A stretch of DNA of 62,904 nt, the filler included, from Reclinomonas americana ATCC 50394 (Eukaryota): assembly GCA_048213135.1 (NCBI GenBank). It is 5 parts of 2 records of this genome, joined end to end, with 100 filler letters (N's around TTAATTAATTAA, not from the genome) between each part and the next. Parts side by side here need not be neighbours in the genome. Positions count along the whole stretch, not along the records: positions 5,838 to 24,575 come from PS015214.1; 4 more parts are not named here. The stretch is one strand, 5' to 3'. The position numbers and the translations under genes are program-made. The stretch's first letter is position 1. Every line of letters starts with the position of its first letter. The notes beneath the pieces are model-generated. The model saw only the letters and a program-made list of their open reading frames with translations. It searched no databases and was not told the DNA's origin. Below, piece by piece: positions 5,312 to 61,538 of the stretch.

Positions 5312-6889
5312 TCAATCGGCGGCAAAGGAGCACGCCTGCGTCGGCGCCGTGGCCAGCAGCTGGCGCAACACACCGCAGTTCCTGTCGGCAGCCGCCACAA
5401 ACGGGTGGCGCAGCAGCTGCGTGGCCGACAGCCGATCGTCCGGGTTCAACTGCAGGCACTTGTGCAGAAAATCGCAAAACATCGGCGACAGCAGCTGGCT
5501 GCAGCTGCCGAGCACCGACCCGTTGTCGCAGATGCGCGTCATCCACACGAATGGCGTCAGATCTGTGTGCACATACACAGATACTAGATCAGCTTCGTTG
5601 CTGTGCGATGATGCATAAGCGACGACGACACAAACGCACCAGCGCCATTCGGGTTCAGCGGGTGGAATCCGAGCACGCACTCGGCCAGCGTAATGGCCAG
5701 CGACCAAATGTCGGCCGCCGTGCCCCACGACGGCGTGNNNNNNNNNNNNNNNNNNNNNNNNNNNNNNNNNNNNNNNNNNNNTTAATTAATTAANNNNNNN
5801 NNNNNNNNNNNNNNNNNNNNNNNNNNNNNNNNNNNNNCCGTCCAGTCGCTCCGGGGCAATGTACGGCAACGTGCCGGTGGCCCCGTCCGGCATCTCCTCC
5901 TCCTCGGTGCTCGACGCCACCATCTCCGTGTCCATCGCACGCAGGTCATCATCGCCGTCGTCTTCCTCCCCGTGATCGTCATCGTTGCTGTCCGAGTCCA
6001 CAAACGGCACGTCGGACTCGGCGGCCGATGGCGACGAGTCGACATTGTTGTCCGCCGGCGCCACAAACTGCGACGAGCCGAAATCGCACAGCCGCAGCAC
6101 CCCATCGTGGCCAAACAGCATGTTGGCCGGCTTCAGATCGCCGTGGCAAATGCCGAGCGAGACAGCGATTGGAGCGCACGCAGCGATTGCGCCGCGATCT
6201 CCGCCGCCGCCGACTCCGACAATTGCTGCTGCGGCAGCGACGNNNNNNNNNNNNNNNNNNNNNNNNNNNNCTCGCAGCGCATCCAGCGATCCATGCTCCA
6301 TGTAATCCAACACCATGACGGCATCGTAGCCGCTAATGTACGAGTCCCACAGTTGCAGCGTGTGTTTTCGCAACGCCGGTGGCGACTGTCATCAAACAAA
6401 AAAATAATGGGTGATGCAGGTCGACATCGACGACGGAGTGCAGAACAACAAGCCCAAAATATCTACGACACGACAACACGCCAACTCCCCTCGCTCTCTC
6501 TCACCTCTGACAACCGTCCATACACCGCCAGCTCTTGCTCCACCAGTGGCGCATGCTGCAGCGACACGTACTGCACGGGGGCGAATCGTCAGTCATGACA
6601 TGACTCGTAACAATCACTTCACCGATGACCACACCAACCTTCAATGCCACTTGCGACGGTGCCGCCTCTGCACCGCAGTTCTTGCCCAGAAACACGTGCG
6701 AGAACGAGCCCTCGCCCAGCTTGTACATGCACTCGTAGTTGTTTGCACTCTGCACGCATGTGGACATGTGTCAGAAAGCAACTGGACGCGTGGACACGAC
6801 ATGACGATCGACAACGCAACAGACGACATTGACTCGTCCGACCCCGCCCCCGCCGCCGCAGACGGCTCTGTTTGTTGTATTGTGCTCAT
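5312..6889 (-). CDS. Ser/Thr protein kinase, STE7/MAP2K-like, interrupted by two assembly gaps
   Basis: Motifs LGEGSFSHV, VALK, DYMEHGSL, HGDLKPANML, LCDFG, GTLPYIAPERL, ADIWSLAITLAEC and RLSATQLLRHPFV. Includes a 13-nt exon at 6450-6462. Confidence 0.88.
5738..5837. other. Artificial 100-bp gap linker N44-TTAATTAATTAA-N44 (also at 24576, 28994, 53846)
   Basis: The identical 12-mer, with stops in all six frames, is centred in N runs four times, including inside genes. Confidence 0.95.
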
Positions 6890-7073
6890 GGCGTGTGGTA
6901 TGTGTGGATGTTGGCAAGCGTAAAACGTTTCTTGCATTCTCTCGACAATGGTGAAGAAAAAAGTTTGGTGAAATTTGGCTGTCGGAACGAACGAACTGTC
7001 CCGTCCAGTCGAGTCACGCCACTCAAGCTTTGCTGCTCTGTGGCCTGCATGTTCCCTTCGTTGTCAGAGACAG

Positions 7074-9879
7074 ATGCACCGAAAACCTGCCACTGCCACT
7101 GACGTCGACGGCGACGACGATCGCGAGTTGCTGCTGCGTGCGCAGCTGGACAAGCAACTGCGACAGTGGCGCGATGATCCATCACAAAGTGGTGCACTGG
7201 CGCGCGCGGTGCTGGAGACGGCGTATGTGGCGCGGCGAGTGGACGTCGTCGAGGCGGTGTTGGAACGGGTGACGGCGGCGGCGGTGGCGATGCGTGTGCC
7301 GGTGTTGGGCGTCAAATGCATTCGTGCAGCGTGGTCGTCTTCTCCGTCATCGTCTGCGTCGTCGTCGTCGTCACGAAGGGAGAGTGCATTGGAGGACGAG
7401 CGTGTGGTGATTACGCGACTGCTGCTGCGTGCGGGGTTGGTGTCGGTGGACAGCGTGCGTGCGTGCTTGCCGCTCATTGTGCAAAGTGGAACGGCGGCGT
7501 CGCTGGTGCCGCTGGTGATGATATCGATGGCGGAGGGCGAACAGAGTGCGAGGGAGGTGATGCGGGCGGCGCTTGCGTCGGCGCACAATGAGACAGTGGT
7601 GGCGGTGATGGAGGCGCTGCCGGCGGAGCAAGTGGCGTCGGTGCTGGAGGCAACTTGCGCGCTGCATGTGGCGTGCGCGTGCAACTTTCCGCTGGCGACG
7701 GTCACGCGTCTGCTGGCGCTGCATCGTGCACCGGGCGAGCTGGTGGCGGCGCGCGATGCCCTGCAGCGCACGGCGCTGCACGTGGCCTGCGAGTCGTCGT
7801 GCTTGTCGACGGCGGTGGTGGCGGCGGTGGTGCGCGCCAGTCACGATGTGTCGGCAGTCGATCGCAGCGGCAACACGCCGCTACATGTGGCGTGTCGGAC
7901 CGGCCGACTCGGCGTGTGTCGGTTGCTGCTGGAGAGCGGTGCGGATGTGCATGCAGTCAACAGGCAACAGCACCCGCCGCTCTTCATGGCGTGTGAGCAG
8001 GCGCACCGATTGCGACTGCCGCTCGTGCAGCTGCTGTTGCGACATGGAGCGCAGGCGCACAGCAGAGGCAAGCGTGGTGAGAGCGTGCTGGAGATGTGTG
8101 TCGCCGACGACGGTGGCGGCGAGGGCGAGGCGCACGTGCAGCTGGTGTGGACGGTGGAGCTGCTGGTGATGTGTGATGCACAGGTGACGGCGCGAGTCGG
8201 GGCGGCGCCCGACCTTCGACGGGTGTGGGATATGGGGCTGGCGGTGTCGGCGTTGCTGACGCACTGGGTGGTGCAGCCGGCGGTGGAGGGGTCGGCCATG
8301 TGGTTGAAATTGCGGTGAGGAGAGAGAGGGAGAAGGGGAGGGAAGGGGAAGGGGAAGGGGAAGGGGGGAAAAGGGGAAGGCAGGAGATTGGCATGCGTTG
8401 ATGGGGGGCTTTCCGAGAGAGTTGTTCTTGAATTCGACACCGTTCAGCACAGGAGGCATAGGAGTTGTGATGCTTTGAGTGATGTTTGTTGACCTGATTG
8501 CTTTCTGGATTGTCTCGATAGAAGTACACGGGCTTGGTCTCATCTTTTCGTATTCTCTCTGTTTGGTTCGAGGTGGAAGAAGAGCTCAAGAGAGTTTCGG
8601 CGGTCGTTGTCGTGGATCGATGACAGTGCTTTGTTATCGGCATCAACATCTGTCCTCTCGGCACACTGTGTCGTTGTTGTCGTGGAACTGAAGGGCTTTT
8701 CTTTGTGTTTTCATTCTTCACTTTGAGTTGAGAGAGGAACACGGGAAGACTCTTGGTGATCGCTTTGCCTGATCTTCATTCTCGACATCGATAGCTTTCT
8801 CTTCACTTTGAGGTGAATGTAGATGCTGGGCCGTTCCATGGCTGTGCTTTTTGTTTGTCGTTGTTGTCCTGGAACAGCTGGGTGTTTCCTTGCTTGTGCT
8901 TTCACTCTTCAGTGACAGGTGAGAGAAGAACACGGGAAAGACTCTTGGTGATCGCTTTGCCTGATCGATTTTCGTTCTCGGCATCGATAGCCTCTCTTCA
9001 AGTCGAGAGCACGAAGAGTTGTGGCGGTCGCTGTTGGATCGTTCATGGCTGTGCTATGTTGTTGACACCTCTTCTTCTCGGTGCACTGTGTCGCTGGTGT
9101 CGTGTGGAGTTGCTGGTCCATTTCGTGCCTGTAGTGCTTTGTTGATGTCAGCATCTCTCTTCTCAGTGCATTGTTCGTGACTGTTGTTGTCGTGGGCCTG
9201 CTGGGCATTTCCTTGCCTGTGGTTTTTCTTCAGTTCGAGAAGAGAGACGAAACGGAAGAGACTCTTGGTGGTCGATGCTGCCGGATCTGACCTGTGACTT
9301 CCCTCTCAACCTGCTGATCATCGCGCTCACGTGCTGTTGTTCTTCCTCGGCAGCGACCACAAGGACTCACCAGCGCGGCTCATGGCGGTGCTCAGGCGAC
9401 TGCACGCCACGTGCTTGGAGCAGAAAGTGCCCATGTCGCAGATCATGCCACTGGATGTTGCCGAGGCGCTGCTGCAGCACGCCGAGCAGGCGGCTTTTGA
9501 TCTTACGTGGTGCGAGTGTTTTGGGAGTGGTTGTTTTTTCCGGTGACTGACCGTGCGATCGGCAGCGACAACGCAGCCAAGGCGTACTGCTTGCACGTGT
9601 TGTTGCCGTCATTGGAGATGCGCATGCAGCGGGTGGTGCATAGCGAGACTCTGTGCGCGGCCTGTTGCGTCCATGTCTGCGTCTGCCCCCCGTCGGACTC
9701 AGCAGTCTGCTAACTCAGTTTGTTCGTGAAGGCCACGAGCTGCCTGTCGAGCTCTGCGACGTGGTTCGTGAATATCACAGCGCCAGATGCAGTGTCTTTT
9801 TGGTTTATGAATTCACCGTCTGTTGCAGATCGCTGAGTGTGCCGCCGACGATCATCGCGGTGGGCTGGCCACCGATTGA
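7074..9879 (+). CDS. Ankyrin-repeat protein with C-terminal F-box-like motif (exons 7074-8314, 9354-9509, 9566-9663, 9732-9763, 9829-9879)
   Basis: Ankyrin repeats RTALHVACE, GNTPLHVACRTGRLGVCRLLLESGADV and HPPLFMAC. The ORF-track stop at 8316 lies inside a gtgagg donor (8315); phase-matched splicing continues to ...CHELPVELCDVIAECAADDHRGGLATD*. Confidence 0.8.
8598..9290. repeat. Degenerate direct repeat (three copies of a ~130-190 bp module) inside ankyrin intron 1
   Basis: Core gagag(a/g)agaacacggga(a)agactcttggtgatcgctttgcctgatc at ~8730 and ~8921, with a diverged copy at ~9237. Each is preceded by a tgt(c)gttgttgtc...tcttca block. Confidence 0.8.
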
Positions 9880-10448
9880 GACGTCGAAGTTCGACCGTCG
9901 ACCATTGCAGCTATTTTTCGCTGCCCGCCTTGCCGGTGGATGCATCGCTCACTGCTACCCGCATGGATCTTCCCGGCAAGTCTGTATGCAACACTCGCCA
10001 TGTCGTCGACCCCGTCCTTCTTCATGCGCCAGGACAATCGCGGTGCGACACGTGGCAGTTCCACGTTTTCAATCTTCCGCAGGAGAGAAGATCATGCGGT
10101 ACGTAACATCTTCCGTCGGTCAAGGGGGGAAGGAGGCACAGTGGATGCACATAGAACGAGAGACGAGAAGACGATGAGCAGGCGAGAGAGGGAGCAGAGA
10201 AGTGAACGCAAACACCTCCGCGAAAAACGCGTGCGTCATCACTCCTGTTTGGCTGATGCACGCGGACACGTTTCGTCGTGCGCCCCGCTGCGTGAGAGTG
10301 AAAAGAAGAGAAAGAATGCCCGTCAAGAGAACCTGCAGTTGGAGTTGCTGACGAAATCAGAAAGTGAGAGCGAGAGAGTCGCGCATGCTTGTGATCGTGC
10401 CATGGCCTTCCTCTTCCTCTCTCCCGTTTTCCTGACGATCCGCGCAGA

Positions 10449-13400
10449 GTGTCGTCGAACGCGTGGACAGTGGTGGCGCTGCTCGCCCTGCTGTCGGTGC
10501 TGTTGGCGGGTGCAGCCTGTGGCGCGCCCTCGGTCACGGCCAATGCGCCAGTTGGCGACAGCGACACGCTCGTTGTCTCCACTTGTGCGTACGCGTCTCC
10601 TTTGATCGCATCCACGCCATTCACTGACTCTTTTTTGTTCTGCAGCCACCCGCGAGGTGCAGGATGCTCTCGACGTGTCGGACGAGGTGACCATCAATCT
10701 GGCCGGTATGTTAGTGCGCCTCCCGTTGTCCACTCATCCGCTGGTCTGATGTGGCGTGTCACGCAGGCATTCCGGTCGGTGAGGCCAGCATGGAGCTGGT
10801 GGCGGCGGCCTTGTCGCCCAAGCTGCGCTCGCTGAAGATGGCTTGTGAGTTGTCATACGTTTCTCCCGACAATGATCAACCAAAAGCGCTGATCCCCTTG
10901 CTCACGCAGCGTCTCGCTTGACGACGGCCACGTTCCGCAAGCTGCTGGACCACATCCAGAAGGCACCGGAGCTGCGCGAGCTCGACATTTCAGGTGAGTG
11001 GCGACAAAAAGTTGCCGTGTCGTGTGACCACTCTTCTCACTCTTTCCCAACCCGCGAACAACAGACAACTGGCTCACCGACGGTGCCGCCAAGGACCTGG
11101 GCTACGTGTTGCAGTTCATCCCGAAGTTGGAGAAACTCAACATTGGCTGTTGCGTGTCCGCACGACGACGAGCCCGTCATCACCGCCGCTGCCGCTGACA
11201 TTTGTCATTGTCGTGCCTGCAGACAACTTTATCAGCAACGACGGACTGCGGTGGCTGCTCGACAAGGTGGGCGATGCACCCGAGCTGCGCTCCTTTGCCT
11301 GCAAGGGCGGGTGGGACATCAAGCTGGATCAGGACGCTGGCCGTGTGATTGGCGAGCGACTGAAGAACATGCCAAAGCTGGAGGTGCTCGACCTGGAGAG
11401 TTGCGTAATTGACCGGCACGCTCGCTCAAAGAGTGTGGTCGCAAAAAATCTCACCTTAATCGCCGCAGAACAACCACTGAAGACGGTGGGTCTCCAGAAC
11501 ATTTTTGCCAACCTGGAGAGCGTGCCCAACCTGCGCGAGCTGCACATTCCCAGTTGCGTATCGTCGTCGTCGTCCACATCCACGCACCAAGCTGACTGTC
11601 GCGCCGCAGAGACCGACATGACGTTCCCGGCCGCGAAGGCGTTGGGCCCACTGCTCAAGAACGTACCCAACCTCGAGGTGCTGGATTTGGCAGAGAACAA
11701 GAACGCCAAGGACAAGGGCTTCAAGGCTATCTTCTCGCACCTGTCGCACGTGCCGAATCTGCGCGAGATCAACGTGTACGATTGCGAGATCGAGACTGAT
11801 GGCATGCTGACGCTGGTGGAGAACCTGAAGCACCTGCCGAAGCTGGAGGTGTTGAATCTGTCGAGTTGCGTCTCGCCTCGCTATGCCGTTTCGTCTCCGT
11901 CGTCGTCGTCGACTCACGCTTTCCGCTGTTGACAGAGAACTCGATGCGCGAGAAGCTTGCCGAGCCGTTTGCGCAGGCACTCAAGCACATTCCGGAGCTG
12001 CGCATCTTGCGGCTGGGTAGTTGCGTCTCTTGCACCTCCGTCGGTGAGTTGTGAATCATGCACACTCAATTATCAATCACGCATGTGCAGCGCACAAGTT
12101 TGGCGTGGAGGGCGCCGTCGAGGTTGGCAAGCACCTGAGCAAGTTGCCGAAGCTCGAGGAGCTGGCCTTTAGCGGAGATGGATTCTGTGCGTACCCTGTC
12201 GAGCGTGGGAGAGAGTGCATTTCTGAAAGCTGACCTGGGTTCTGGGTCGTGCGACAGACTTCCCGATCTACGGCCAGGGCACTGGACAGGTGCTCAAGTC
12301 CGTCGCCAAGATCAAGTCGCTCCGCATTCTCGACCTTTCGAGTTGCGCCCTGTCATCGAGCAAGGTTAAATATTATCGCCACTCACCTGCTTCTTCGTGC
12401 AGACACCAAGCCCGACGCCTACGGCCTTGGCATCCTCGACGAGGTGCTGCCGAGCATGGTGAACCTGGAGGAGCTGTACATTGGCGGTGCGTGAGCGAGA
12501 GAGACGTGGTGCTGCTGCAGTTTGGCGATCTCACTGAATTTTTTCCGCACAGCCAACTCGTTTGAGGAGGAGCAGGGCAAGCAACTCGCCGGCATTATCA
12601 ACCGCCGCTCGCCGCCCAAGCTCCGCCGTGTGTGGTTCGAGGGTGAGTGCAGAGTTTTCTCCTGGTGGACCCTGCACAGCGACCACCCTCTCACTTGGAC
12701 GATTCGCAGGAAATCCGCTGAAGACCGACACCAACTTGGAGATCATCAACGCCCAGGTCAAGGCCTTTGGTCCTCGCTTCACCAAGATCGACATTGGAGG
12801 TTTGCTTGCGTACAGCCTCTGTGCATGTCACTCCTTGCTCCGTATTCCTGACGACTGGACCAGGCTGGATGCTCGACGACGACAAGCTGAAGGGCTCGCG
12901 CCTGCTGCAGTACCTGCAGGGTGCACCGAACATTGAGTGGTTCTCCGCCGGCACCAACAAGCTGACCGACGACGGCATTCTGGGTTTGGCGGACCTCGTG
13001 GGCGGCTGGAGCAAGCTCAAGGTCCTGGACCTGCGCAGTTGCGTACCAGCTGCCGTGAGAAGATGGATGACTCCAGTTTCCCTCACCGCGCATTGTGCAT
13101 CACCAGGCAACCCGATTGGTGACCGCGGCATGCAGGGCATCATCAAGAAGCTGCCGGCGAGTTTGGAGTCCCTCTCCTTGTCCAACACGCAGATTGGCGA
13201 CGACACGTTGCTCAACCTGGCCAACAAGCTGTCGTCGTTGCCGAAGCTCATTCGCCTCGATCTCGGTGGTGAGTGCGCACTCTGTGTGTGCTCGAGGGAG
13301 GCGCCGCTTGTCTGATTACGTGACGCGCAGAGAACAAGGAGTACACGGAGGATGGCCTGAAGATGTTCATGAAGCACTTGCACCACTGCCACGCGCTCAA

Positions 13401-14052
13401 GGAGCTGATTTTGAATAGTTGCGAATGCATGCAAGGGGATGTTGAGGGAGGACGTGTGCTGACGAATGTGCATGTGTGCCACTCAGACTGCTACATGTCG
13501 CGCAAGAGTGCTCGCATCATCGGCGACTACTTGCACACAATCCCGTCGCTCGGCGCACTGGACCTGTCTCGTTGCGTGCCGCTCTCCTCGTGAATCCGTT
13601 GCTCTCGTCGCTTTTTTCCTGACTGTTCAGGCGATCGCACAGGCAACCTGATTGGCGACAACGCGGCGCTGCATGTGATCAAGCAGGCCACTCGTCTGCC
13701 GTTCTTTGTGCACCTGACGCTGCGCGGCACCGGCCTCACCGACGACGGCGCAAAGGAGATTGCCGACGTGCTGGGCTCGGCGCAACCGTACGGCATGACG
13801 CTGGATCTGGCAGAGAACAGCATTCAAGACACGGGTGCGTGGGCCCTGGCCGACCGCGAGGTGGCGCCCGATGCCAAGCTGCGCAAGCTGACACTCAACT
13901 TGATTCGTTGCGTAACCTCATGACTGCGTGTATGTGCGTTGAGTGGGTGGATGATCTCACGTTTTCTGCTGTGCAACACAGGCAACAATATCAGCGAGGA
14001 GGTGAGGAAACAGATCCATGAGGCGCACCCGCTCATCTACACCGGCGGCTGA
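10449..14052 (+). CDS. Probably secreted RNI-like leucine-rich-repeat protein, at least 20 exons; start codon not resolved
   Basis: Signal-peptide-like WTVVALLALLSVLLAGAACG, followed by ~28-aa repeats PxLxxLDLSxNx(I/L) (e.g. PELRELDISDNWLT, PNLEVLDLAENK, SKLKVLDLRSNPIG). The 19 introns are all phase 1. Ends HPLIYTGG*. Confidence 0.88.
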
Positions 14053-14231
14053 GGTGTCGCCGTCAGGCCGATTTAGTTTTCTTTTTACGAAGAGAGATAG
14101 TGCACAACGAGACACGTTCTTTTTTCAGTGGTATTATTCTTCCATGATTTCACTTATGGGGGGATAAGAGGGAAAGGAGGAGGTGGATGTGGGGGGTCTG
14201 TCAGCGCCACCACCACCACTCTATTGGGTTT

Positions 14232-15569
14232 CTACTCGATCTTGTTGCTGGTCACCACCGTTGTTGTCTCCACTGTCGGCAAGAACAGGGTCTGCCAGCG
14301 CTTCTTGCCCCATCGCGGCGCATGATTCAGCGTCTCCTCTCGCACGTACTGTGGGCACGAGTGGTCAGTCTCGCTTCCACACAGCAAACGAGCAGTGTGT
14401 AATGCACCATCAAGAAGGTGCACGCAAAATAGGAGCCGAGACCAGTGCCCACGTGCCTGTACAACATGGACGGTGAGCAGCAGCGGGAGGGTGAGAGTGA
14501 AAGAAAGAGAGTGGCTTCGCGCACCACCACGAGTGCAGCTGGAAGAGGACGCGCGGAACCATCATCTCCAGTCGAGAGCACAGATGATAGTCGAACAACT
14601 GCATCCATTCAAAGTGAGCCCAAAAGACTCAGCAGCTGGAGCAGGGCTGCGCACGTACCCACAACACGGCGCCCATAAAGTACGTCCACATCGCCAAGTC
14701 GTACATCTCGCGCACGTTCTGCAGCGTCGTCGTCATCGACATGAACACGAAGCAGGAAGAGAGAGCGAGATTCCTCCCACACACTCACCTTCTTCGGATG
14801 GTGCCACGCAATGTACCCCGACTGCACTGTGGTCGCAATGACGCCCAGGATGTAGCTTGCCTGTCACTCACCTCCCCATGAGCATGCATCCAGCAAGGAA
14901 ACGAGGAGAAAAGGAGCAAACAACAGCGCGCACCTGGAACCAGAACGGCTGGTCGGGGAAAAGCAGCAAACACAACGTGCCGCAGATCGTGTACACGACG
15001 AGCATGGGAATAATCGTCTTCGGCGCCTTGCCTCGCATGTTCTGCATGCACACACCCGTGAGCAGCAATGCAGCAGCAGCAGCAACAGTCGAACGCAACA
15101 ATGGCAGCATAGACAAAGAACGATCCACCGATGAGCATCGGAAATTCATCGAGAACCTGACCAAGGCGCGAGAGAGTGGCGTGGAATGCAGTCGATCCCA
15201 GTCCCTAAAGAGAGAGAGAGAGAGACGCGCACGTCAAAACATGCAACGAGAGAAAGAGTGTGTGTGAAAGAAAAAGAGGCGCTCACCACACACACAAGCG
15301 ACGCATACAGTCCCCAGAAGCGCCACTCTGCACGAATGCGCGCACAGTTCAGCAGGCCAATGATGGCCGGCACCCAGATGAATGCATTCGAGAGCGTGTT
15401 CCACGTCTCGGCAATGTACGAAGAGTGCACGCAGTTGGCCTCGCACCAGTCTAGCACATAAGTGTGAGAGAGAGATGACTTGACGAGCGTTTCTTCTTGC
15501 GTGCAAGTGGTGCTCACCAATGTACCCAGTGACGGGCTCCCAGAAACACTCGTTCTTTGGCCCGCGCAT
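14232..15569 (-). CDS. ACER3: Alkaline ceramidase (ACER3/Ypc1 family, CREST superfamily)
   Basis: Spliced motifs FWEPVTGYIDWCEAN, YIAETWNTLSN, GLGSTAFHATL, VLDEFPM and QLHSWWHVGTGLGSY. Confidence 0.92.
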
Positions 15570-15642
15570 CGAAACAGCAAACCACGATATTCACCGTCTG
15601 TCTGATCCGTACAAGGTTCTCAATTATCGGATTGTGAGAGAA

Positions 15643-18350
15643 ATGACAGAGACACAGTGTGCCGCATCCACGTTTCATCGCCACCCGCTGCGTCTGATCG
15701 ACTTGACGACGGAGTCGCAGGCAAAGGCGCATGAGATTGCCGAGTGCGCGTTGCGTTTTCTTCTTGTCGGTGTTGTTTTTGAGTGCGTGTCTCGTGGAGA
15801 GAATCTTCCGACGCGCGTGCTCCAGTGCGTGTCTGGAGCTGTGTGAACCGCCAATTGTGTTGTGCACGGAGGCGCAGCATCCGCTTTGTCGTGCGGTGAG
15901 TGACGCGGTGTGTGTCCAGATGCGAATCTTTTTTCTCACCAATCGTCACTCGTGCAGCATCTGACGCGCGCCGAGCGGCATCTGTGTCCATGCTGCGACA
16001 CATCGCTCGACTCGTGTGTGTCGCCGTCAGACGAGGTGACGGCGGCGTTTGAGGGCTTGCAGGTTCGTTCCTGTGTGTTGGTGGTGGACCTTGCAATTAC
16101 CAAGTTGTCTCTCTCAATCGGCGGATCATCACAGGTGGCGCACTGCCCGAACGCACAGTGTGCGTGGAAGGGAACACTCGGTGACTACGTGCACACGCAT
16201 GAGCATGTGTGTGAGATCCAGTGCTCGCAGTGCCACGAACCGGTGCCGCGGTGCCACATGCGTGAGCATCGAGGTGCGCGTGAGCTGTTTGGTGGCGAGA
16301 GTGTATCCTCCTCCCGCTCAGTCGATCTTCCTTCATGCAGAGCACGTTTGCAACCAGCGGGCGGCACACTGCCACGCTGCGTCGATTGGCTGTGCGTGGG
16401 TCGGCGTGGTCGCCGATCTCGACGCCCATGAGCACCAGTGTGCATTTGCCTCGGCGGGCGAGCCCGTCAAGCGTCGCGTTGCGTCGTGGATGCTGGCAGC
16501 TGCTGACAGCTGTGATAGGCAGAGCTTATTCAAATGTGCAACATGCAGATCACCACCCTGCAAGACGAGAACAAGCACCTTGCTGAGGAACGCGATCAGC
16601 TGCTGGCGACGATCCGGGAGCTGAGTGTCAGTCACACGCCTCATCATTCTCACGCACATGGACATCCCGTCGAGGATCCGGGAATGGTGGTGCGTCATCT
16701 ATCTCCTCGCACTCTCTCCCGTGCCTGCCTACTTATGTGCACGCGTGCTCAGGCCAAGCTGGAGACAAGAAACCGAGAGATGCGGATGCGAGTGCATGAA
16801 CTGGAACGCGAAGTGGTCCGCCTGCGTAAGTCACTCCGCGTGCGATCTCGGGTGCGCATGCGTCGTGCACGCAAGAGAGTACGATGGAGAGACGCTCACT
16901 GTAGTGCTCTTGTGCAGTCGCCACCGTCGCATGCGTCGACGCCGCGATACGCGACATCGGTTTCACAATCGGTGCAAGAGCTGCCGCACTCGCACGCACC
17001 TGCACACGGCCACAGTGTCAGCATGGTCAGTTGCCTTGTGCTGATTGCATCACGGGCTGGTGACTAACAACGTGTGCTCCTCGTCATAGAGTGCCGCTGG
17101 CGCCGCATCGTCGTCGCCGAGCGCGCGACCAGCCAGTGCGGCGAGTACGGTAAGTGTCATGCGCGATGAACATCCCTCCTCGTTGTGTGCATCGGAACAA
17201 CTCACTGAAGAGGGTTGCTGGCGGTGGAGTCGCGTAGGTGGCGCCTTTGAGTGCACGCTCGTCGTCCAGCATGTCGTCGCACTCGTCGCTGGTGCGCTGC
17301 CTGTGAGAAACAACGTTTTTCGACACTGAGTTGTGTGCTGATTGGTTTCAAACGGGCAGTTTTCGCACTCGAGTCACCATCACGGCCACAAGGTTTGTGA
17401 GCGTGTGCTGAGGTGAGACCTGGAGGTTGCTGTTGACAGGGAATCTGTGTGATGTGCAGCGATGCCTGCGCTGCCATGCGTTGGTGGAGAGCGAGCAGGA
17501 GGCGGAGATTCCGTGTGGTTTGTCGGATTTCTCGCCTGCCTGCAGTCGTCCTTTTCTGTAGAGCTCCACTCACTGCGACTGGTGTCACTGTGTGATGTAG
17601 TGTACCATCCAGGGACCTACCGCACCAAGCCATCAGCTCTGCCGTTCGGACACACTGTTGCGTGCGTGTCGAAGAAAAAAGCAGTCACATGTGGCACTCA
17701 CTGCATGCTGTTGTTTGTGTGTGCAGTATGTGCGTGCATCACCACTCTGCTGAAAGTAGTAGTGACTCACCGCCTGCTGTCTCTTGCTGTGGCTCTCTCT
17801 TCCTTCGCCTGGCAGTCGGTACGTGTGCCACACAAAACTCACGATTGTGAATTTCGGCACTTACTTATAACTTGTCTCTCTCTCTGCAGCGAGTTGAGTC
17901 CACTGCAGTCCACCTCGTCTGTTGCATATGTTTGATGACATCTGACATTATCGTGTGTACTTCTGCGTTCTGCCGTCGCTCCTTTGCTTCACGGATGTTA
18001 GGGGGTGAGTGATCGATATGATCGATATCGATATCGAACAACACCGACTGCTTCTCTGTGTTATGCTCGCTAACACTGTTCTGCTTCTCACCATGTCGTT
18101 CCTTTACCATCTCGTGTCGCATGTGGATGGCAGGAGGTACGTGCGCAGTGCGGCATATGAGTTGTCTTCGATTTCCATTCTGATCCTTGGCCTCTTCGGT
18201 GCAGTGGGAGTGCTGCGGAAAGTGGGGCGAGGTGAGTATTGCACTGACATGCCTGCGCTCTCTGTTTGCATGCGAGGCTGACCGCACTGGTGCTTCGACC
18301 AACAACAGGATGCGCCCGGCTGCCACGAAGAGAAATTCCACGAGTTGTGA
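15643..18350 (+). CDS. RING finger + TRAF-type zinc fingers + coiled coil + C-terminal CHORD/Btk-like zinc finger, including five 3-nt microexons
   Basis: RING-like CAAC..C..H.LC..H..CPCC; TRAF-like CPNAQCAWKG..H..C and C..ASIGCAW..H..C; coiled coil ITTLQDENKHLAEERDQLL. Intron 17150-17237 links in frame to RCLRC..PCVYHPGTY..GHT-Y-S-R-G-E-WECCGKWGEDAPGCHEEKFHEL*. Confidence 0.8.
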
Positions 18351-18513
18351 ACACACCCAGAGCCGGAAGGACCGGCGGATTGGTTTTTGCATACACAACC
18401 ACCGACAGACATTTAGAATGCTACAGTGAACACTTGAACACGTAATGCAGCGAGCATGAAGGCGTTGGGTCGGAAAATTGAGCGGACAACTCGAGTCCCA
18501 CTCTTCACAATCC

Positions 18514-19413
18514 ATGTCAGGTGACGCGCGTCACCACACACACACACGCAGCATCAAACACATGTGCACTCATCGCCCTCTACCACCACAGCGGCTTCCT
18601 CGTCCACCACACCCGTGTCGTTGCGTTGCCTCTCTCTCTCTCTCCCTCTCTCTCTCCCACATGCACTCTCGTTGCGCATCGCTCACTCCACAAATGCAGA
18701 TCAGCTGCTGCACCCTCGCGTCGACAAGTCGTCAGGGAAGTGCATGGTGAGGAGCATCCGCACACACACGTGCAGTGCTGCATCCTCCGATGCTGACATC
18801 AATGCACATCGTCAGGTGACTTGTTCACCTCCAAGGACTCGCTTGCACACTGCGTCTCTGTCGACATGCATATGGGCAAGGGCATTGCGACCGAGTTCAA
18901 GCGACGCTTTGGCGGCGTCGATGAGCTCAAGGCGCAAGACCCCTGTGCGTCAACCCCTCTCTCTCTCTTGTTGCGGTCGCCCCTCTCACACTCCTGCACT
19001 ACATTCAGCGATCGGCTCGGTGGTGTTTCTGGATCGCGAGGAGGAGAATCGAGCCATCTTCTACCTCGTCACCAAGGAGAAGGCAAGTGTTCCCGTCTGG
19101 CGACCGCGATGGCAGTCCGATTGACGCGCTCCTGCATGCACAGTACTTCCACAAGCCAACGTACGCCACGCTGCGCCAGGCACTGGAGGGCATGCGACGG
19201 CTGTGCACGACGCTGGCCGTCAAGTGCATCTCCATGCCACGCATCGGCTGGTACTCTCCTCTCCCCTCTCCCTCCCTCTCTCGCTCGCTTTGCACTCATC
19301 CGTGTGACCTTCTTGGTAGTGGTCTGGATCGCCTCGAATGGGGTCGCGTGGAGGAGATGCTGAACGAGGTGTTTGGCGACACGGACGTGGAGATCACAGT
19401 GTACGTGTTGTAG
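18514..19413 (+). CDS. OARD1: Macrodomain ADP-ribose glycohydrolase, OARD1/TARG1 type
   Basis: [62 protein letters not shown] and ITVYVL*. One GC-AG intron (19083-19143). Confidence 0.95.
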
Positions 19414-19527
19414 CCAATCATCATCATCATCATCGTTTAAAATGCAGAATATCCACCACCAGCACGACCCATCATCTAAACTAACAAACAGCCACACACA
19501 CACTCAACAAACAACTCTCCCACAAGC

Positions 19528-21090
19528 CTACTTGCGCTCCTCGTAAACAAACATGTCTCCAAACTCTTGCATGACGGCATCGAGCACCGCTGCATGGTCG
19601 CACACCACCACCCTCTTGCCGGCCTTGGCCAGCTTCTTGGCAATGCGCAGCTTGGGCGAGTTGTCAATCATCGGCACGGCGCAGTTCGGCTTGTATGTCA
19701 CGTCCTCGAATCGGTACTGCGCGCACAAGTACGGTGAGTGACCGGCAATACCCACCACCATAAACCGCAGCACGCAACTTCCTCGCGATCCTCCGCCAGC
19801 AAGTCGTGGAACATGAGATCCGAGTGGAAGTCATTGTACTGATCCGAGGCCTCCGGCAGCAGCGGCTTCACGCCAATCGACGATGCATACACACCCAGCG
19901 CCACATTGTCTCGTGGGTAGCACGGTCCACCGTACGCGTAGCCGGGTCGGATGCACTTGGGTCCGATCGAGTCGTCGCAGCCGAGAGCACGCGAGATTTC
20001 GTCCTTGTCGGCGCCAGGAGTCCGATCGGCAATGTCGCCAATCATGTTTCTGTCGACGCAACGGCGCACGTAAGTATGAAGGAGAGAGAGAGAGAGAGGC
20101 AGCCAAGAAAATACAAGTGACGAGACGCAACGCAAACGAGATCTTGATGGTGCGGAAGCAGTTGGAGGCCAGCTTGGTGATCTCGGCCGATTCCGGTGTC
20201 ATGCGGCAAATGGCGGGCGGTGAGGTCGAGCCACGCGCCAGCGCCGTGTAGATCTCTGTTAGCCGTGCAGCGCTGGCGTCGTTGTCGGCACCCACGAGCA
20301 CCATGGAAAAGTAGCCGCCGGTTTGGTAGCCTTTCAGAATGTCGCCCTGTGCGACGAACGCCGGGTTGTAGTTGACTGTGACGTTGGGGCAGTCGCGCAG
20401 CAAGAAGCGCGCCACGTTGCGAATGTAGCCCGGCATCACCGTGCACGAGATCACAATGTGCTTGTCGGCGGGCTTGCGACGATTGACCTGGCTCAGCACA
20501 CGCGATACCTTCGAGTGATCGTACTGACGCTCGCCACCAGCCGTTGGCGTGTCCACCAGCACAAACACCGTGTCGGCGAACTCCAGTCCCTGCGAGTCGC
20601 AAGGTAGCATGAAGAGGTCAGTTGTTCTGCACTCCAATCCTCGCAGGAGTCGACAAGAACACACCTCGGCAAGCGATGTGGTGGCGCGGAAATTGGTGCA
20701 CGACTGCAGCAACTCGGTGACGCCCGGCTCGTCCGACACATACGTGCGGTTGTTCAGTGCCTCGCAGTACACGGGCGACAGGTCGACACCGAGCACATCG
20801 TAGCCGGCACGCTCGCACGACAAGGAGAAGCACAAACCGATACGACCGATGCCTGCATGCATGCATGCCGGATTGAGTTCTCAACCGACGAGGACAAGGA
20901 GGAGAAGGTGCAGTGCATATGAAGGAGAGACGAGAGTGATGCTCCCGTGTACAGGCAGACAAGAGATGCAGCAGAGTAAGTGAAGGGTGTTGCGTGCGTG
21001 TGATCGTCGTGATCACATGTCCGCGAAGGACACAGAGACGCACTCACCGATCACGGTGAGCTTGTTGCTGGAGGACGACGATGAGGCCAT
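19528..21090 (-). CDS. UDP-glucose/GDP-mannose dehydrogenase family protein
   Basis: Rossmann motif VIGIGRIGL, VDTPT, YNPAFVAQG, AEITKLASNCFRTIKISFANMIGD, catalytic-Cys motif YGGPCYPRD, and TYKPN. Confidence 0.92.
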
Positions 21091-21398
21091 GGGTTCCGTG
21101 AGGATGATGATGATGAGGGATAACTGCACACAGCAGCAGCATCAAGTGAGTTCTCGGAGCTCACAGAGAGCCGCCATGGCCATGTGCAACACACAAAGAA
21201 AGAGAGAGAAAGCGCAACGCGATTGCAGACTAGTCGATCAGGAGGAGGAGCAAGTGCATCAACTCCCCGCTCACTCTTCTCCCCACTCCCCTCTTCTCAC
21301 TCGACAATCGACCCAACACGTGCTCACCAAACAACACAACGAGCTGGAAATACTCCGATTCCGTCCATTCAAGTGAGTGGGTGGAATACCCCTCAATC

Positions 21399-23719
21399 AT
21401 GCGTCGCGCTGTGACTGCATTGCTGCTGCTCCTCGCACTGTGTGCCTCCCTCGCCAGTGCGCATCAGCTGCGCGGTCAGTCCACGAAAGACGCGCTGTCA
21501 CTGGATTTCCTGGGTACGCTCTCTCTCTCTTGCATGTGTGTATCACTGTCTCATCATGCGCAATAGGCGTGGACTGCCCGACCTACGACTTTGCCGGCAA
21601 CTTCAAGACGAGTGACGTGGCCAGCAACACCAATGGCGCACGCGACCGGTACATTGCGTGTGTGCTGGAGTGGGAGGGCCGCTTCTTGCAGGCGGGGGTT
21701 GCCTTTGATGCGCAGACGTACTTGTCGTACGACGGGCACGAAGTGGATGTTGCGTGCTGCTTGCGGTCCGTCTTGTCAAGTGTCGCTCGCTCACTTGCTG
21801 TGCTTGCAGTTGAACACCGGGTGATCATGCATGATCGGTCCTTCTCACGACTGCCCACGACACTAATGTGGTTTTTTGTCTCCGATGCGCAGGGAACTGG
21901 TGGGCGGTCCGCACAACTGGAGCGCCGCGTCCAAGGAGACGGTGCATGTGGGTCTGCTGGCGCTCTCGTTGTCGGGCAATGCGCGTGCGCAGCTGCTGCT
22001 CTCCAGCTCGTGCGGTCACCAGTGCAACGTGACGGAGCTGGCGCTCAACATTCTCTCGCACAAGATGGACTCGTACGAGCAGTTTGACACCTCGTTGCCG
22101 GGCTACGGTGGCTACCTGCCGTGGTACAAGTCGGTGAATGGACAGGTGCTGCCGCAAGACGGGTGGGAGAACCGTGTGCCGGCGCTGGACAATGGCGAGT
22201 GGCTGTGGGCCATTTTCGCCGCCTACAATGTGCTGGGTGACTTGCGACAGCATGCGCTGGCCGCACGCTACGAGGCCAAGTTCCAGCAGCTCATCCGCAA
22301 TGCCCGTCCCATTTTCTACGAGGGCAACGGCAATGTGCGCACCGTCACCAAGATTCGCGACATGAAGGCGCAGCCGACGGCCGCCAACTATTACGCCGAG
22401 TCACCGGGCTCGTGGTTGGATGATTTCTACGAGGGTGCGTGGATATGGGGGAAGGATGAGCTGAGGAGGATTGGGGGGATTGTTGGGGAAGAGTGAGATT
22501 TGCCTGCACACTGTGCTTCGTTTCCTCGTATCTCGTTTTCTGGATGCGCGAAGCGCTCTCACAGAGAAGGGGGAAGATGGAAGAGGGGAGTGAGAGTGGA
22601 ATACCGTCAGTGTTTCAGTTTTTCTGTGTGGTGCTTCGCTTCTTTCTCTCTTGTACATACATGTATTCCCGCCCATGGTGCGTTAAGCACTCTCACAGTC
22701 AGCAAAATTTTCTTGGGAGGAGGAGGACATGATTGCTTGGGGAGGGTGAGAGTAGATTTTCCTCCTTGCACACACTCATACTCGCTGTCTATGATGCCTG
22801 CAGCACTGTTCCCATCAGTAGGAGAATAGTGCACGGCGTTTCTCCCTCACTTTTCTCGCAGGCGACTTGTACACGGTGTTCCTCGATCTCTTTGGCGACT
22901 TCAACGAGACCGACCGCAGTCTGCTGTGGTCCACCAAGCTGTACAAGCTGCAGCAAGTGGACTTTACGACGCCAGCCGGCGTTGTCTCCCTGCCCCGTGG
23001 CTGGTGGTTCTCCAGGTATCACATCAATCGACTCGCCCCCTGCCTCCTCCCCCTCTCCTTCCCGTCTCATCACGATACCACAGCCACGAGCAGTGGAAGT
23101 TGATGGAGTTGCCGTACATGTCGATCCAGCTGGTGCGCGATGTGTTCACCAACGCGGAAAAGGCGCGCACGTGGAATTCGGTGATGAACAAGACGCCGGG
23201 CATGCATGCCTCGGTCAACGTGGGCGCCGATCCCAACATGTACTACGCCAGTGACTCTGGTGTGGCGCCCCTCGCCTTTGAGTCGTGCACCTCCGAAGTG
23301 ATTGTCACTCCAGTTGCGCTTGTCGACAACGAGCGTCTCTTGTCTCCCCTCTCATCCAAAACTCGTGCTCGCAGTACGCCACCTTCCCTACCATCCTCGC
23401 GGACGAGGCCACGGGTCTGGCGTGGCACCTGGCCACCCTGCAGAGCCACCCGCAGACGCAGACCAAGTACGGCTCGGCCGAGTCGGTGCGGCTCACTGCG
23501 CCGCAAGTGGTGTGCCCGCTGGTCACCTGGGACGCCAAGATGACAACAATGCTGGCGCTCACGGGCGGTCTGCAAGACCTCAACGCACGCTACCTCACGC
23601 AGGCGCAGCTGCTGCGCTTCAAGACCGTCATTGGCATGTCCTACGGCGCCAAGTTCACCAACGTGAAGGGCCAGTCGGTGCGCATGGGCTTGCCAGACGA
23701 CATCTCTGTTGACGCATAA
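21399..23719 (+). CDS. Secreted endo-beta-1,2-glucanase, GH162 (SGL-like)
   Basis: Signal peptide MRRAVTALLLLLALCASLASA, then YDGH, WSAASKE, PGYGGYLPW, VPALDNGE, DDFYEG, WWFSSHEQWK, VTPYATFP and VTWDAKMTT. These match the motif pattern of the fungal SGL family as recalled. Confidence 0.85.
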
Positions 23720-23760
23720 AAAAAGAGTGCTACAATGTCATCTGCTGTACTCCTTGCCCT

Positions 23761-24192
23761 CTAGACGCTCTCGGTTCTCCCGCGAACACACGGGCTCGAA
23801 CAGCTGCACTCTGAGGTAGCCTGCAGCTCCGCCCAGCACCGCTCCGACCAGTGCATGCACGCGGACTCGCCGACCAGTCCACCGATCACCTGTGAGAGAG
23901 ATGAGCTCGTACGTGCGCACATACGCATGCAAGCACACACACCGTATCGTGCCGTGGCCATCGTGAGGCCGAGGAGACTGCCGCCCACTGCCCAGATGCC
24001 GGCCGACCACGCGGATGCACGCTCACACGGCAGTGAATCGAGACGTGATCGTGGCTCTGGGCGCATCTCGGCTGTCAGCGGAGTGTCACGCGCCTCCTCC
24101 GGCGGTGTGGTGTCGCTGGCGGCTGTGGCCATTTCGTCGTGAATGGGGGACAGGTCGGTGAGGAGGGACACGACGACGTTGTAGCCCTTCAT
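23761..24192 (-). CDS. Small hypothetical membrane protein (2 exons)
   Basis: ORF with hydrophobic Gly-rich segment SAGIWAVGGSLLGLTMATARYG|VIGGLVG and one GT-AG intron. Its stop lies 41 bp from the GH162 stop. Confidence 0.5.
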   Translation of the reverse strand: MKGYNVVVSLLTDLSPIHDEMATAASDTTPPEEARDTPLTAEMRPEPRSRLDSLPCERASAWSAGIWAVGGSLLGLTMATARYGVCACMRMCARTSSSLSQVIGGLVGESACMHWSERCWAELQATSECSCSSPCVRGRTESV

Positions 24193-24401
24193 CTAGAAGA
24201 CAACTGCACCTTTCTGCAAAGAGATGGAAGGTCTTGGTTTCTTTCCACTTTGTGTTTTTTTACTTTCTGTATCGTGTACTTGATATGATCGAGACTGTCA
24301 GAGTGGCAGCAGGGCGCTGACCACCTGCACTGCGGGTGCAAGTCCGTGATCCCCCTCAGTCAGGCGAAAGCCGGCGGCGTACAAGTAGTGGTAGTGGTGT
24401 G

Positions 24402-25263
24402 ATGGTCATGGTGGTGTGCACTGGCGGCTGCGAGGCCGCAGAGACATGCCGACCGCCCAACGACAAGAAACATAAGTCGTGGGCATGGACGGCATGCAAC
24501 TCTGCGCTTCTCTACACCTCCGCCGTGGCCAGTGCAACACAACACCAGACGCGCACACACATAAACACACAAACGNNNNNNNNNNNNNNNNNNNNNNNNN
24601 NNNNNNNNNNNNNNNNNNNTTAATTAATTAANNNNNNNNNNNNNNNNNNNNNNNNNNNNNNNNNNNNNNNNNNNNTGCTCACCTCTCTTGCCGCTTGCCG
24701 CTGACGTGACCGCCGCAGCCGGTATCCACAAGTGCACGGCGTGTCCGCCACCCGAGCCCGGCACAGTCTACACAGAAACAGGCGTCGTCAGTGAGCAATG
24801 TCCACGAGTGTGCGCGCCCGGGTACGAGTGGATTGTGCAGTCGTCGTCGTGTCAACCGTGTCGATCCGGATTCTTCAAATCGCACAGCGGTAGCCTCCTC
24901 CTCTCGACCCAATCAAAGCAGAAGAACTGTGCGTTTCTCATTCGTGGTTGCTAATCGCAGGCTCCGTCGCCTGCACGGCATGCGCCAACGCACCGCTGAA
25001 TAGCTTCTACACCGGTGTTGGATCGACGACGAGCGAGTGCACGTTTGTTTCGCTGGTGTGTCGCATTGCTTCGCTACATGCGTCGGTGCTCTTTCTGACA
25101 ACGCGCGCCACAGTCGGGAGTTTTGATGTCGCGGGGCACCGGCCATCTGTCCTCGTTCGTGTTTGGCTGTTTAAGCGCACTGGTGCTGTACTACGTGGCC
25201 CGCAAGGCATACGACTGGTGGATTGACGCGACGCCGCGGAAGCCCGACGATCTCATGGTTTAG
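24402..25263 (+). CDS. Small Cys-rich (TNFR/ephrin-receptor-like repeat) single-pass membrane protein, crossing a gap
   Basis: CTACPPPEPG..CPRVCAPGYEW..CQPCRSGFFKSHSGSVACTACANAP..CTF, then TM SSFVFGCLSALVLYYVA and a short tail. Start is uncertain. Confidence 0.7.
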
Positions 25264-27578: not shown

Positions 27579-28563
27579 GGAAGGAAGTGGGCGGGGAGGG
27601 GAAAGGAAAGGGGAAAAAGGGGGGAGTTGTCTTCTCTCGCACAAGCAGCAAAAAATGAAAATGGACAAATGTTATTGGCCGAAATAGACTTGATCGACCT
27701 CGACCGCAGCACGCGTTGGCTTGTGAACGTGGAAAGCAGCGTGTGGAGGGAGGGAGAAGGGCTGCCAGTGCAGCGCATGCATGCAGTGGTGCTTCAACAA
27801 GTCACAGTATCGATTACGACTTCGCGCAAAAATCGATATCGTCCGAGTGCGATCCTGATATCGATTGCACGCCATCAGCAAGGAAGCCTGCGCTGATAAA
27901 GTGATTGCTCCAACAAATTCGTGCATGCAACGAACTCGAGCCGATGTTTCTCTCGCTGAAGGCATTTCAAAGTCCGGTTCGGATTCTCTCGCGACGTCGA
28001 TGGATTTCTTACCTCAGCTATTCTCCGGTGCCCACTCAAGGCTACAACGTATCATGCAGGTGCGTCGGTGCTAGAATTCGTTGTTCTTGCAACAAATCCT
28101 TGCTCTGCTTGAAATTTCTCATCATGCATGACCAGATCGACGTCGAATTCTTAGATCTATAGAAACTTCAACCTTTCTCCAGCGCCCACTCAAGGCACTG
28201 CGGTTGTAATGCAACTTTGATGCTGGTATAGTTTGCACTCTCTTGCTCCAGCCCTGATTTCTCTTGCAGCATTTCGAATTTCTCTCGATCGCGACGTTGT
28301 ACTCTCTCTCTCTCAAATATCTCAGCTTCCCTAGTGCCTACTCAAAGAAGAAGATGTTCTACGCATTAAAATGCAGCAGCATCGCTGTATGGCCAATGAG
28401 AGTTGTTGCTTTGATATCGTATGTCCTGCAAAAAATGCAACGGCCGGCCACATTTCGCGTGATCGGCACTCGGGAATCGACAGAGAGAGAGAGAGAGAGA
28501 GCCTCAGCGATACGTGTCTGCGCGTGTGTGTGAGAGAGTGACAGAGAGAGAGAAAGAGAGAGA

Positions 28564-33675: not shown

Positions 33676-33763
<88 letters not shown>

Positions 33764-34981: not shown

Positions 34982-35141
34982 ACCAGAAAAAAAAAGAAGG
35001 CTAATGTATGTATGTGTTACGCGGAGTGGTAAAAGAACACAGCAGAATAACTTCATTCTTTCTGTGCATGGAGAGCCGCTAAACATCATCGTTCTTATTC
35101 ACAGTTGGTGGGAGGAGAGAGTGGAGTGGAGATTGCCAAAC

Positions 35142-61505: not shown

Positions 61506-61538
<33 letters not shown>

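Follow-up and report, generated by a model that had tools for sequence, protein, structure and literature searches.

Can a run of exons consist of single codons, each enclosed by two introns? The question is raised by positions 17657–18204 of a 62,904-nt stretch of DNA from Reclinomonas americana ATCC 50394 (GCA_048213135.1), where five trinucleotides in the 3′ half of a putative zinc-finger gene each stand between two intron-like units. This stretch, which we call the window, consists of five parts joined by 100-letter N fillers. The array region lies within the part from PS015214.1 (positions 5,838–24,575), and all coordinates are those of the whole joined stretch. The GC content around the array is about 0.58, and short GT-AG introns and assembly gaps are present in the window. 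A preliminary description had proposed five 3-nt exons in tandem and, around them, six phase-0 introns of 70, 86, 71, 109, 129 and 68 nt. We verified these coordinates, lengths and phases, and all trinucleotides and flanking hexamers were found in the sequence as they had been given; the tandem array is confirmed as a sequence feature. As argued below, the region probably, though by no means certainly, consists of six real introns and of five single-codon exons that enter the mRNA.

Anatomy of the array and departure from chance

Each of the six units comprises a donor, a CTNAY motif 10–66 nt before the AG, a final 25 nt with a pyrimidine share of 0.52–0.76, and a YAG (Table 1). The acceptors of the five 3-nt exons are CAG or TAG, and each exon is followed directly by GT. 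All six units are in phase 0, and every array exon has two flanking introns, keeps the frame and is free of stops. The eight frame-supported introns of the host gene look like the six array units in donor, CTNAY, pyrimidine tail and YAG. Together with six introns fixed by protein homology in the neighbouring genes, they form a reference set of 14 with lengths of 57–126 nt, and we judge the units, at 68–129 nt, to be within the range of the genome. Conceptual splicing gives ...C V YHPG ... GHT-Y-S-R-G-E-WECC ... PGC ... FH ... stop, and full inclusion would be expected to yield the tryptic peptides ...PSALPFGHTYSR and GEWECCGK. Gene predictors would probably miss the array, as had been anticipated.

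The array is not due to chance. The pattern YAG-NNN-GTRNGT occurs seven times on the plus strand of the window, and four of the seven fall inside the 548-nt array region; the fifth array site has the donor GTTGAGT and lies outside the pattern. The minus strand has eight occurrences, unclustered. We also counted 3-nt exons between two intron-like units, a unit being defined by a donor GTNNGT or GTTRNGT, a length of 50–200 nt and CTNAY 15–65 nt before YAG. The plus strand of the window contains six, namely the five of the array and one in a GT microsatellite (32421), and the minus strand contains none. A comparison with shuffled controls had been suggested, and the five doubly flanked sites of the array exceed all shuffles. 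Dinucleotide shuffling of the N-free block 6271–24575, repeated 300 times, gave a mean of 0.25 such sites and a maximum of 3, versus the 5 observed. When the array region alone was shuffled 3000 times, 2934 shuffles had no such site, 63 had one, 3 had two and none had at least three. The bare pattern YAG-N3-GT reached at least five occurrences in 10 of 3000 shuffles. Apart from the array, a distance of 3 nt from YAG to a strong donor is not over-represented in the window.

The distribution of AG dinucleotides is the strongest internal sign of six introns. The zones free of AG before the six acceptors measure 42, 53, 70, 93, 124 and 43 nt, and the other AGs of the region (n = 13) are confined to the 5′ part of the unit in which they occur. 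Window-wide, the median gap from AG to AG is 10 nt, and the probability of a gap of at least 42 nt is 0.09. When the 13 AGs were placed at random in 20000 trials, none reached the summed tail of 425 nt and seven reached the minimum tail. AG is thus excluded before all six acceptors, which argues for six separately selected 3′ splice sites, as one long intron would need only one. A single intron of 548 nt would also be four times the longest of the 14 fixed or frame-supported introns.

The donors can be compared with those of two neighbouring genes, a UDP-glucose dehydrogenase gene on the minus strand and an OARD1-like macro-domain gene just downstream on the plus strand (18815–19413), in each of which three introns are fixed by gapless alignment with homologues. 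From these alignments, GTTGCGT and GTGCGT can be regarded as proven to be genuine donor types here, and one of the dehydrogenase GTTGCGT donors runs on GTTGCGTGC, the same as at 17657. GTTGCGT occurs at 47 sites in the window (32 on the plus strand and 15 on the minus strand), and an intron-like unit with a median length of 70 nt follows 32 of them. This is the highest share among the motifs tested, with non-donor hexamers at 26–30%, and GTTGCGT seems to be a major 5′ splice-site motif of the genome, maybe the commonest. GTGAGT is used as a donor at 18232 in the host gene. GTACGT, the donor of two units, is plausible in that it conforms to GTNNGT and looks like the fixed donor GTACTC. Two of the six array donors lack G at position +5 (GTTGCGT and GTTGAGT). 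The earlier statement that all donors match types used elsewhere in the window therefore stands for GTTGCGT, GTGCGT and GTGAGT, extends to GTACGT by resemblance and pattern only, and finds no support for GTTGAGT.

The proposed inclusion of five codons and the competing readings

In the reading that we favour, 17657–18204 would be six separate functional short U2-type GT-AG introns, not one, and a 15-nt coding piece would be divided into five one-codon exons for Tyr, Ser, Arg, Gly and Glu. We infer that the sites are used and that all five codons enter the mRNA. Splicing would proceed by intron definition, with each donor paired across the intron with the nearest branch point and the first AG, such that recognition of the exon as a unit would be unneeded. 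Because sites 3 nt apart could hardly be occupied together, neighbouring introns would be removed successively. The product would read ...YHPG-x14-Y-S-R-G-E-W-E-C-C..., in which the five residues would lengthen the loop from the His to the Cys-Cys ligands. As for the origin of the array, our guess is either repeated duplication of a unit of "intron plus 3 nt" or stepwise splitting of a longer intron, the latter perhaps in a loop tolerant of insertions.

The anatomy of the array, its statistical non-randomness and the use of these donor types elsewhere in the window are established. The reading frame points in the same direction. If the acceptor at 17726 is used, a stop follows eight codons on unless a donor at 17730 or 17734 is taken, and the situation is similar down the chain. 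Since avoidance of a stop needs the next donor at each step, inclusion of the five codons would be the default outcome. Furthermore, with the downstream exons the C-C-C-H-C-C-C-H pattern reaches its full eight ligands, in the order of CHORD, and the stop comes directly afterwards, which we count in favour of the reading.

Several results weigh against it. Loose splice rules allow 861 other in-frame paths between 17601 and 18205, some of them with larger exons and strong donors only. Codon usage does not discriminate: per codon, real exons score between −0.2 and +0.19, and introns score no differently. GTTGAGT, the donor of intron 4, is intron-like at only 4 of its 11 sites in the window, which is near background. 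The remaining 62 kb contain neither a second array of this kind nor any further convincing 3-nt exon, and the two neighbouring genes fixed by homology contain no microexons. Neither the protein searches nor the window yielded an orthologue or paralogue that could show conservation of YSRGE or of the loop length. Lastly, the His to Cys-Cys spacing is 23 residues with the five codons and 18 without them, versus 14 in the CHORD-II domain of Rar1 (His181–Cys196; PMC2935968), and the form that skips all five codons is thus nearer to the known domain.

Among the alternatives, the one that survives best is that the sites are real and inclusion is partial, so that some or most transcripts would lack at least one 3-nt exon, either through regulation or as noise. 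All five exons are 3 nt long and in phase 0, so any subset would keep the frame. Skipping a single exon would create introns of 159–241 nt, which is not absurd, but the other introns seen in the window are all at most 126 nt. The CGA exon might be among those skipped, given the weak donor type of intron 4, and 3-nt exons elsewhere are often alternative (PMC7392893; RPS24). On the other side, each acceptor has a long AG-free zone and a strong pyrimidine tract, which speaks for its efficient use, and we regard partial inclusion as unlikely. An extreme form, in which all five exons are real and each can be skipped alone to give up to 32 forms with 0–5 extra residues and graded loop lengths, we consider improbable; the earlier proposal of up to 32 loop variants was pure conjecture and found no support here. 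If graded skipping were true, the array would amount to a splice-encoded "ruler" tuning a metal- or partner-binding loop at single-residue resolution, and would imply no lower limit to exon size or intron spacing under intron definition.

Alternatively, 17657–18204 might be a single long intron that joins GHT to WECC, its internal sites being leftovers or decoys that slow or regulate splicing. The first donor and last acceptor are both good, and the shorter His to Cys-Cys spacing of 18, closer to the CHORD value, is in its favour. However, within one intron selection would not be expected to keep five donor–acceptor pairs, AG-free zones as long as 124 nt and six sets of branch-point and pyrimidine tracts, splicing would have to break the nearest-acceptor rule five times, and such an intron would be four times longer than any other seen. 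We give this reading little credence.

Tiny or larger exons with other borders are a slightly poorer prospect still. In one version, the donor GTGCGT at 17662 would end an exon 17601–17661, and a 7-nt exon 17727–17733 would follow with the donor GTGCAT. In another, larger exons such as 17727–17818 and 17909–17952 would add about 45 residues. These paths are in frame and stop-free, and GTGCGT at 17662 is a strong donor type. Nevertheless, GTTGCGT followed by GC at 17657 is exactly the homology-fixed donor of one dehydrogenase intron (intron C), and to form the 7-nt exon, splicing would have to bypass GTGCGT at 17730 in favour of the poor donor GTGCAT. With the larger exons, whole intron-like units and their pyrimidine tracts would fall inside exons, one acceptor would be only the second AG in line (17908, preceded by 17889), and one intron would have 49 nt, fewer than any other observed.

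Very improbable is decay or mis-assignment of the 3′ end of the gene, as a pseudogene or through WECC and PGC exons foreign to the transcript: the protein searches found no homologue of the host gene and its fragmentation into 14 introns in 1.83 kb is unusual, but fifteen exons (16522–18350) are open, in phase and end in a stop, the Cys/His pattern is complete only when these exons are joined, and splice signals are intact throughout.

The recursive-style route through the region that had been suggested was dropped, because 3 nt stand between AG and GT at the five sites and junctions such as ACT/TAT regenerate no GT. As no donor is regenerated, use of the sites would necessarily leave the three bases in the mRNA.

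Three further ideas were tried and rejected. The array introns are not tandem copies or members of an introner family, though they may go back to an ancient duplication: BLAST found only chance or low-complexity words of 10–17 nt, and there is no tandem repeat; the mean local-alignment z was 0.98 among array introns and 0.78 between array and other introns. A small-RNA host (small nucleolar RNA or mirtron) had no Rfam match at the gathering score and only three matches, at E 3.3–4, and the fold z-scores of the six units range from −0.58 to +1.19. A minus-strand gene (a 221-aa open reading frame (ORF) at 17865–18530) had no Pfam match.

The host gene and its surroundings

The 15 exons from 16522 to 18350 chain in one open, in-phase frame that ends in TGA. 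The 3′ half of the host gene is finely divided, by 14 introns over 1.83 kb; the exons outside the array are 27–108 nt long and of mixed phase. The last exons encode C-x2-C-H-x12-C-x-YHPG ... W-x-CC-x9-C-x5-H. Taken together, the predicted product would combine a RING domain, TRAF-type fingers, a coiled coil and a C-terminal CHORD/Btk-like two-zinc module, and the protein is probably a ubiquitin-ligase-type adaptor.

Table 1. Positions of the array, its host gene and the homology-fixed introns of the two neighbouring genes
Feature	Position	Strand	Length (nt)	Details
Host gene, upstream part	15643–17392	+		RING-like Cys/His stretch first; start codon and 5′ exon borders approximate
TRAF-type zinc-finger exons	~16134–16276 and ~16341–16466	+		
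Coiled coil	16522–16626, 16753–16825	+		
Small exons	16918–17025, 17090–17149, 17238–17302, 17360–17392	+		
Exon R-C-L-R-C-H ... E-I-P-C	17460–17517	+		First three Cys of the module; acceptor CAG, donor GTTTGT; ends with base 1 of a Val codon
Intron, phase 1	17518–17600	+	83	GTTTGT...TAG; CTCAC 28 nt from AG; Val codon split G/TG
Exon upstream of array	17601–17656	+	56	Encodes (V)YHPGTYRTKPSALPFGHT; ends ...GGA CAC ACT (GHT)
Putative array intron 1	17657–17726	+	70	GTTGCGT...CAG; CTCAC 26 nt from AG; AG-free tail 42 nt
Candidate exon TAT (Tyr)	17727–17729	+	3	
Putative array intron 2	17730–17815	+	86	GTGCGT...CAG; CTCAC 46 nt from AG; AG-free tail 53 nt
Candidate exon TCG (Ser)	17816–17818	+	3	
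Putative array intron 3	17819–17889	+	71	GTACGT...CAG; CTTAC/CTTAT 26/22 nt from AG; the only AG is the acceptor
Candidate exon CGA (Arg)	17890–17892	+	3	
Putative array intron 4	17893–18001	+	109	GTTGAGT...TAG; AG-free tail 93 nt; least supported donor of the six
Candidate exon GGG (Gly)	18002–18004	+	3	
Putative array intron 5	18005–18133	+	129	GTGAGT...CAG; AG-free tail 124 nt; retention gives an in-frame stop
Candidate exon GAG (Glu)	18134–18136	+	3	
Putative array intron 6	18137–18204	+	68	GTACGT...CAG; CTGAT 21 nt from AG; AG-free tail 43 nt
Exon downstream of array	18205–18231	+	27	WECCGKWGE; starts TGG GAG TGC TGC; Cys-Cys zinc ligands
Last intron	18232–18308	+	77	GTGAGT...CAG
Last exon	18309–18350	+		Encodes DAPGCHEEKFHEL; stop TGA
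UDP-glucose dehydrogenase intron 1	20664–20590	-	75	Donor GTGTGT; in frame, stop-free
UDP-glucose dehydrogenase intron	20131–20050	-	82	Donor GTTGCGT
UDP-glucose dehydrogenase intron	19778–19717	-	62	Donor GTTGCGT
OARD1-like gene intron	18945–19008	+	64	Donor GTGCGT
OARD1-like gene intron	19083–19143	+	61	GC-AG type, GCAAGT...CAG
OARD1-like gene, third intron	19251–19319	+	69	Donor GTACTC

Matches of the host protein to known families are weak. In Pfam, TRAF2_zf (E 0.0012) and TRAF6_Z2 (E 0.044) are both below the curated cut-offs, and matches to coiled-coil families are also weak. Unspliced single-exon pieces of 22 and 81 aa, the only ones of the module searched in Pfam, had no match at E ≤ 1, and the YHPG exon alone had no match at E ≤ 10 in a sequence search of the PDB and none in the ESM Atlas. 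A word-indexed protein search with the RING/TRAF stretch, over longer proteins, returned 55 candidates, none at E ≤ 0.01. An exhaustive HMMER search with a 175-aa frame translation returned two marginal matches (E 2e-4 and 8e-4), which we take as spurious. The window holds no paralogue, as YHPG and W-x-CC occur together only at the host gene. For the UDP-glucose dehydrogenase, the protein collection contains no relative above 50% identity, and no close genome or transcriptome therefore seems to be represented in it.

The host gene has further GTTGCGT sites at 15750 and 16478. The latter would begin a 41-nt intron (16478–16518) before the coiled-coil exon, and GTCAAG at 16467 could serve as its donor instead without a change of phase. 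Eight GTTGCGT sites lie in a row on the plus strand in a leucine-rich-repeat (LRR) gene region (11149–13907).

In four of the six homology-fixed introns of the neighbouring genes the only AG is the acceptor: 20050–20131 and 19717–19778 on the minus strand, and 18945–19008 and 19251–19319 on the plus strand. Introns here seem in general to avoid AG strongly. The unspliced dehydrogenase ORF reads through 20664–20590 as a 25-residue insertion.

Elsewhere in the window, a Pfam search of 132 further plus-strand ORFs of at least 90 aa (of 179 on the plus and 164 on the minus strand) gave a single weak LRR match. The window as a whole has no tRNA genes. Uninterrupted open frames of 500–580 codons occur, for example at 37770–39518 and 61087–62601 on the minus strand; these have no Pfam match and are putative coding regions only. 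Intron density is highly uneven between such long frames and the 3′ half of the host gene. The region 28000–36000 has a GC content of 0.34–0.47 (versus about 0.58 elsewhere), gaps of 875 and 986 N, and long CT/GT microsatellites, and may be repeat or transposon territory.

Comparison with known zinc modules and microexon systems

The module had been likened to CHORD and Btk zinc fingers for its YHPG..WxCC..GC..H pattern, and we find it similar to them in that C-x2-H lies around YHPG with W-x-CC after it. In Rar1, the zinc ligands of CHORD-II are Cys159, Cys164, Cys178 and His218, and His181, Cys196, Cys197 and Cys213 (PMC2935968). The likeness holds for the order of ligands, which is C, C, C, H, CC, C, H in both the host module and CHORD-II. 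It does not hold for the canonical CHORD spacings, which are C-x4-C, H-x14-CC, CC-x15-C and C-x4-H. In the host module the first two Cys are separated by x2 and not x4, the Cys-Cys pair and the next Cys by 9 and not 15, and the last spacing is C-x5-H. Presumably the corresponding spacing from Cys-Cys to Cys in the Btk motif is 9, equal to that of the host module. The Gly two residues before the Trp would also fit a Btk pattern that we take to be G-x-W-x-CC, although this is a weak point. BTK motifs joined to TIR domains have been described in protists (PMC5094078).

If the array is confirmed by transcripts, it would be the longest run of minimal exons found, with six introns within 15 coding bases. 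It would then offer a natural test case for how the spliceosome handles a donor and an acceptor 3 nt apart and for the order in which neighbouring introns are removed. It could equally help to tell whether such structures arise when a unit is duplicated, when a long intron is split or when introns are gained repeatedly. Gene-finding and read-alignment programs would cut the host gene short or join it wrongly.

Recursive splicing proceeds through zero-length exons at AG/GT ratchet points in long animal introns, where ligation regenerates a donor and nothing is retained. The array resembles it in a possible stepwise removal through internal acceptor–donor pairs. The difference is that AG abuts GT at a ratchet point, whereas the array has 3 nt between them, which would be retained if used.

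Full-text literature searches, exclusive of supplements, found no run of at least four exons of at most 3 nt in the text they reached, and the precedents they found comprise one to three adjacent microexons. This agrees with the preliminary description, whose author knew of no tandem run of five. Isolated ultra-short exons include 1-nt exons in plant APC11 and VPS55 (PMC8831610) and a 3-bp exon in Drosophila homothorax (PMC7392893). Like the candidate exons of the array, these are coding exons of 1–3 nt between GT-AG introns, missed by annotation and with a strong, conserved donor right after them. They are single and confirmed by RNA and conservation, whereas the array has five in a row and is known from sequence. 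Adjacent microexons are also described: plant and Zygnema Peptidase M1 genes have one of 5 nt next to one of 12 nt (PMC8831610, PMC11096116), and human RPS24 has three, of 3, 18 and 22 bp (PMC12207440). Here two or three tiny exons are split only by introns, which makes successive splicing feasible. These runs are shorter, at two or three exons, most of the exons are longer than 3 nt, and those of RPS24 are alternative C-terminal exons.

The micro-exon genes (MEGs) of schistosomes have symmetric exons of 3–81 bp and long introns (bioRxiv 10.1101/2023.06.21.545858). They share with the array tandem symmetric exons that can be skipped in frame, and they provide a known model for variation by microexon skipping. 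We rejected membership of the host gene in this class, as only 15 nt of its coding sequence lie in such exons and the others are 27–108 nt long and of mixed phase. As described in that preprint, MEG coding sequence consists mostly of microexons, mostly of at least 6 nt, with introns of up to 5 kb, and encodes secreted parasite proteins. The array, in contrast, is a local 15-nt patch in the putative zinc-binding domain of an intracellular-type protein, and its introns would measure 68–129 nt.

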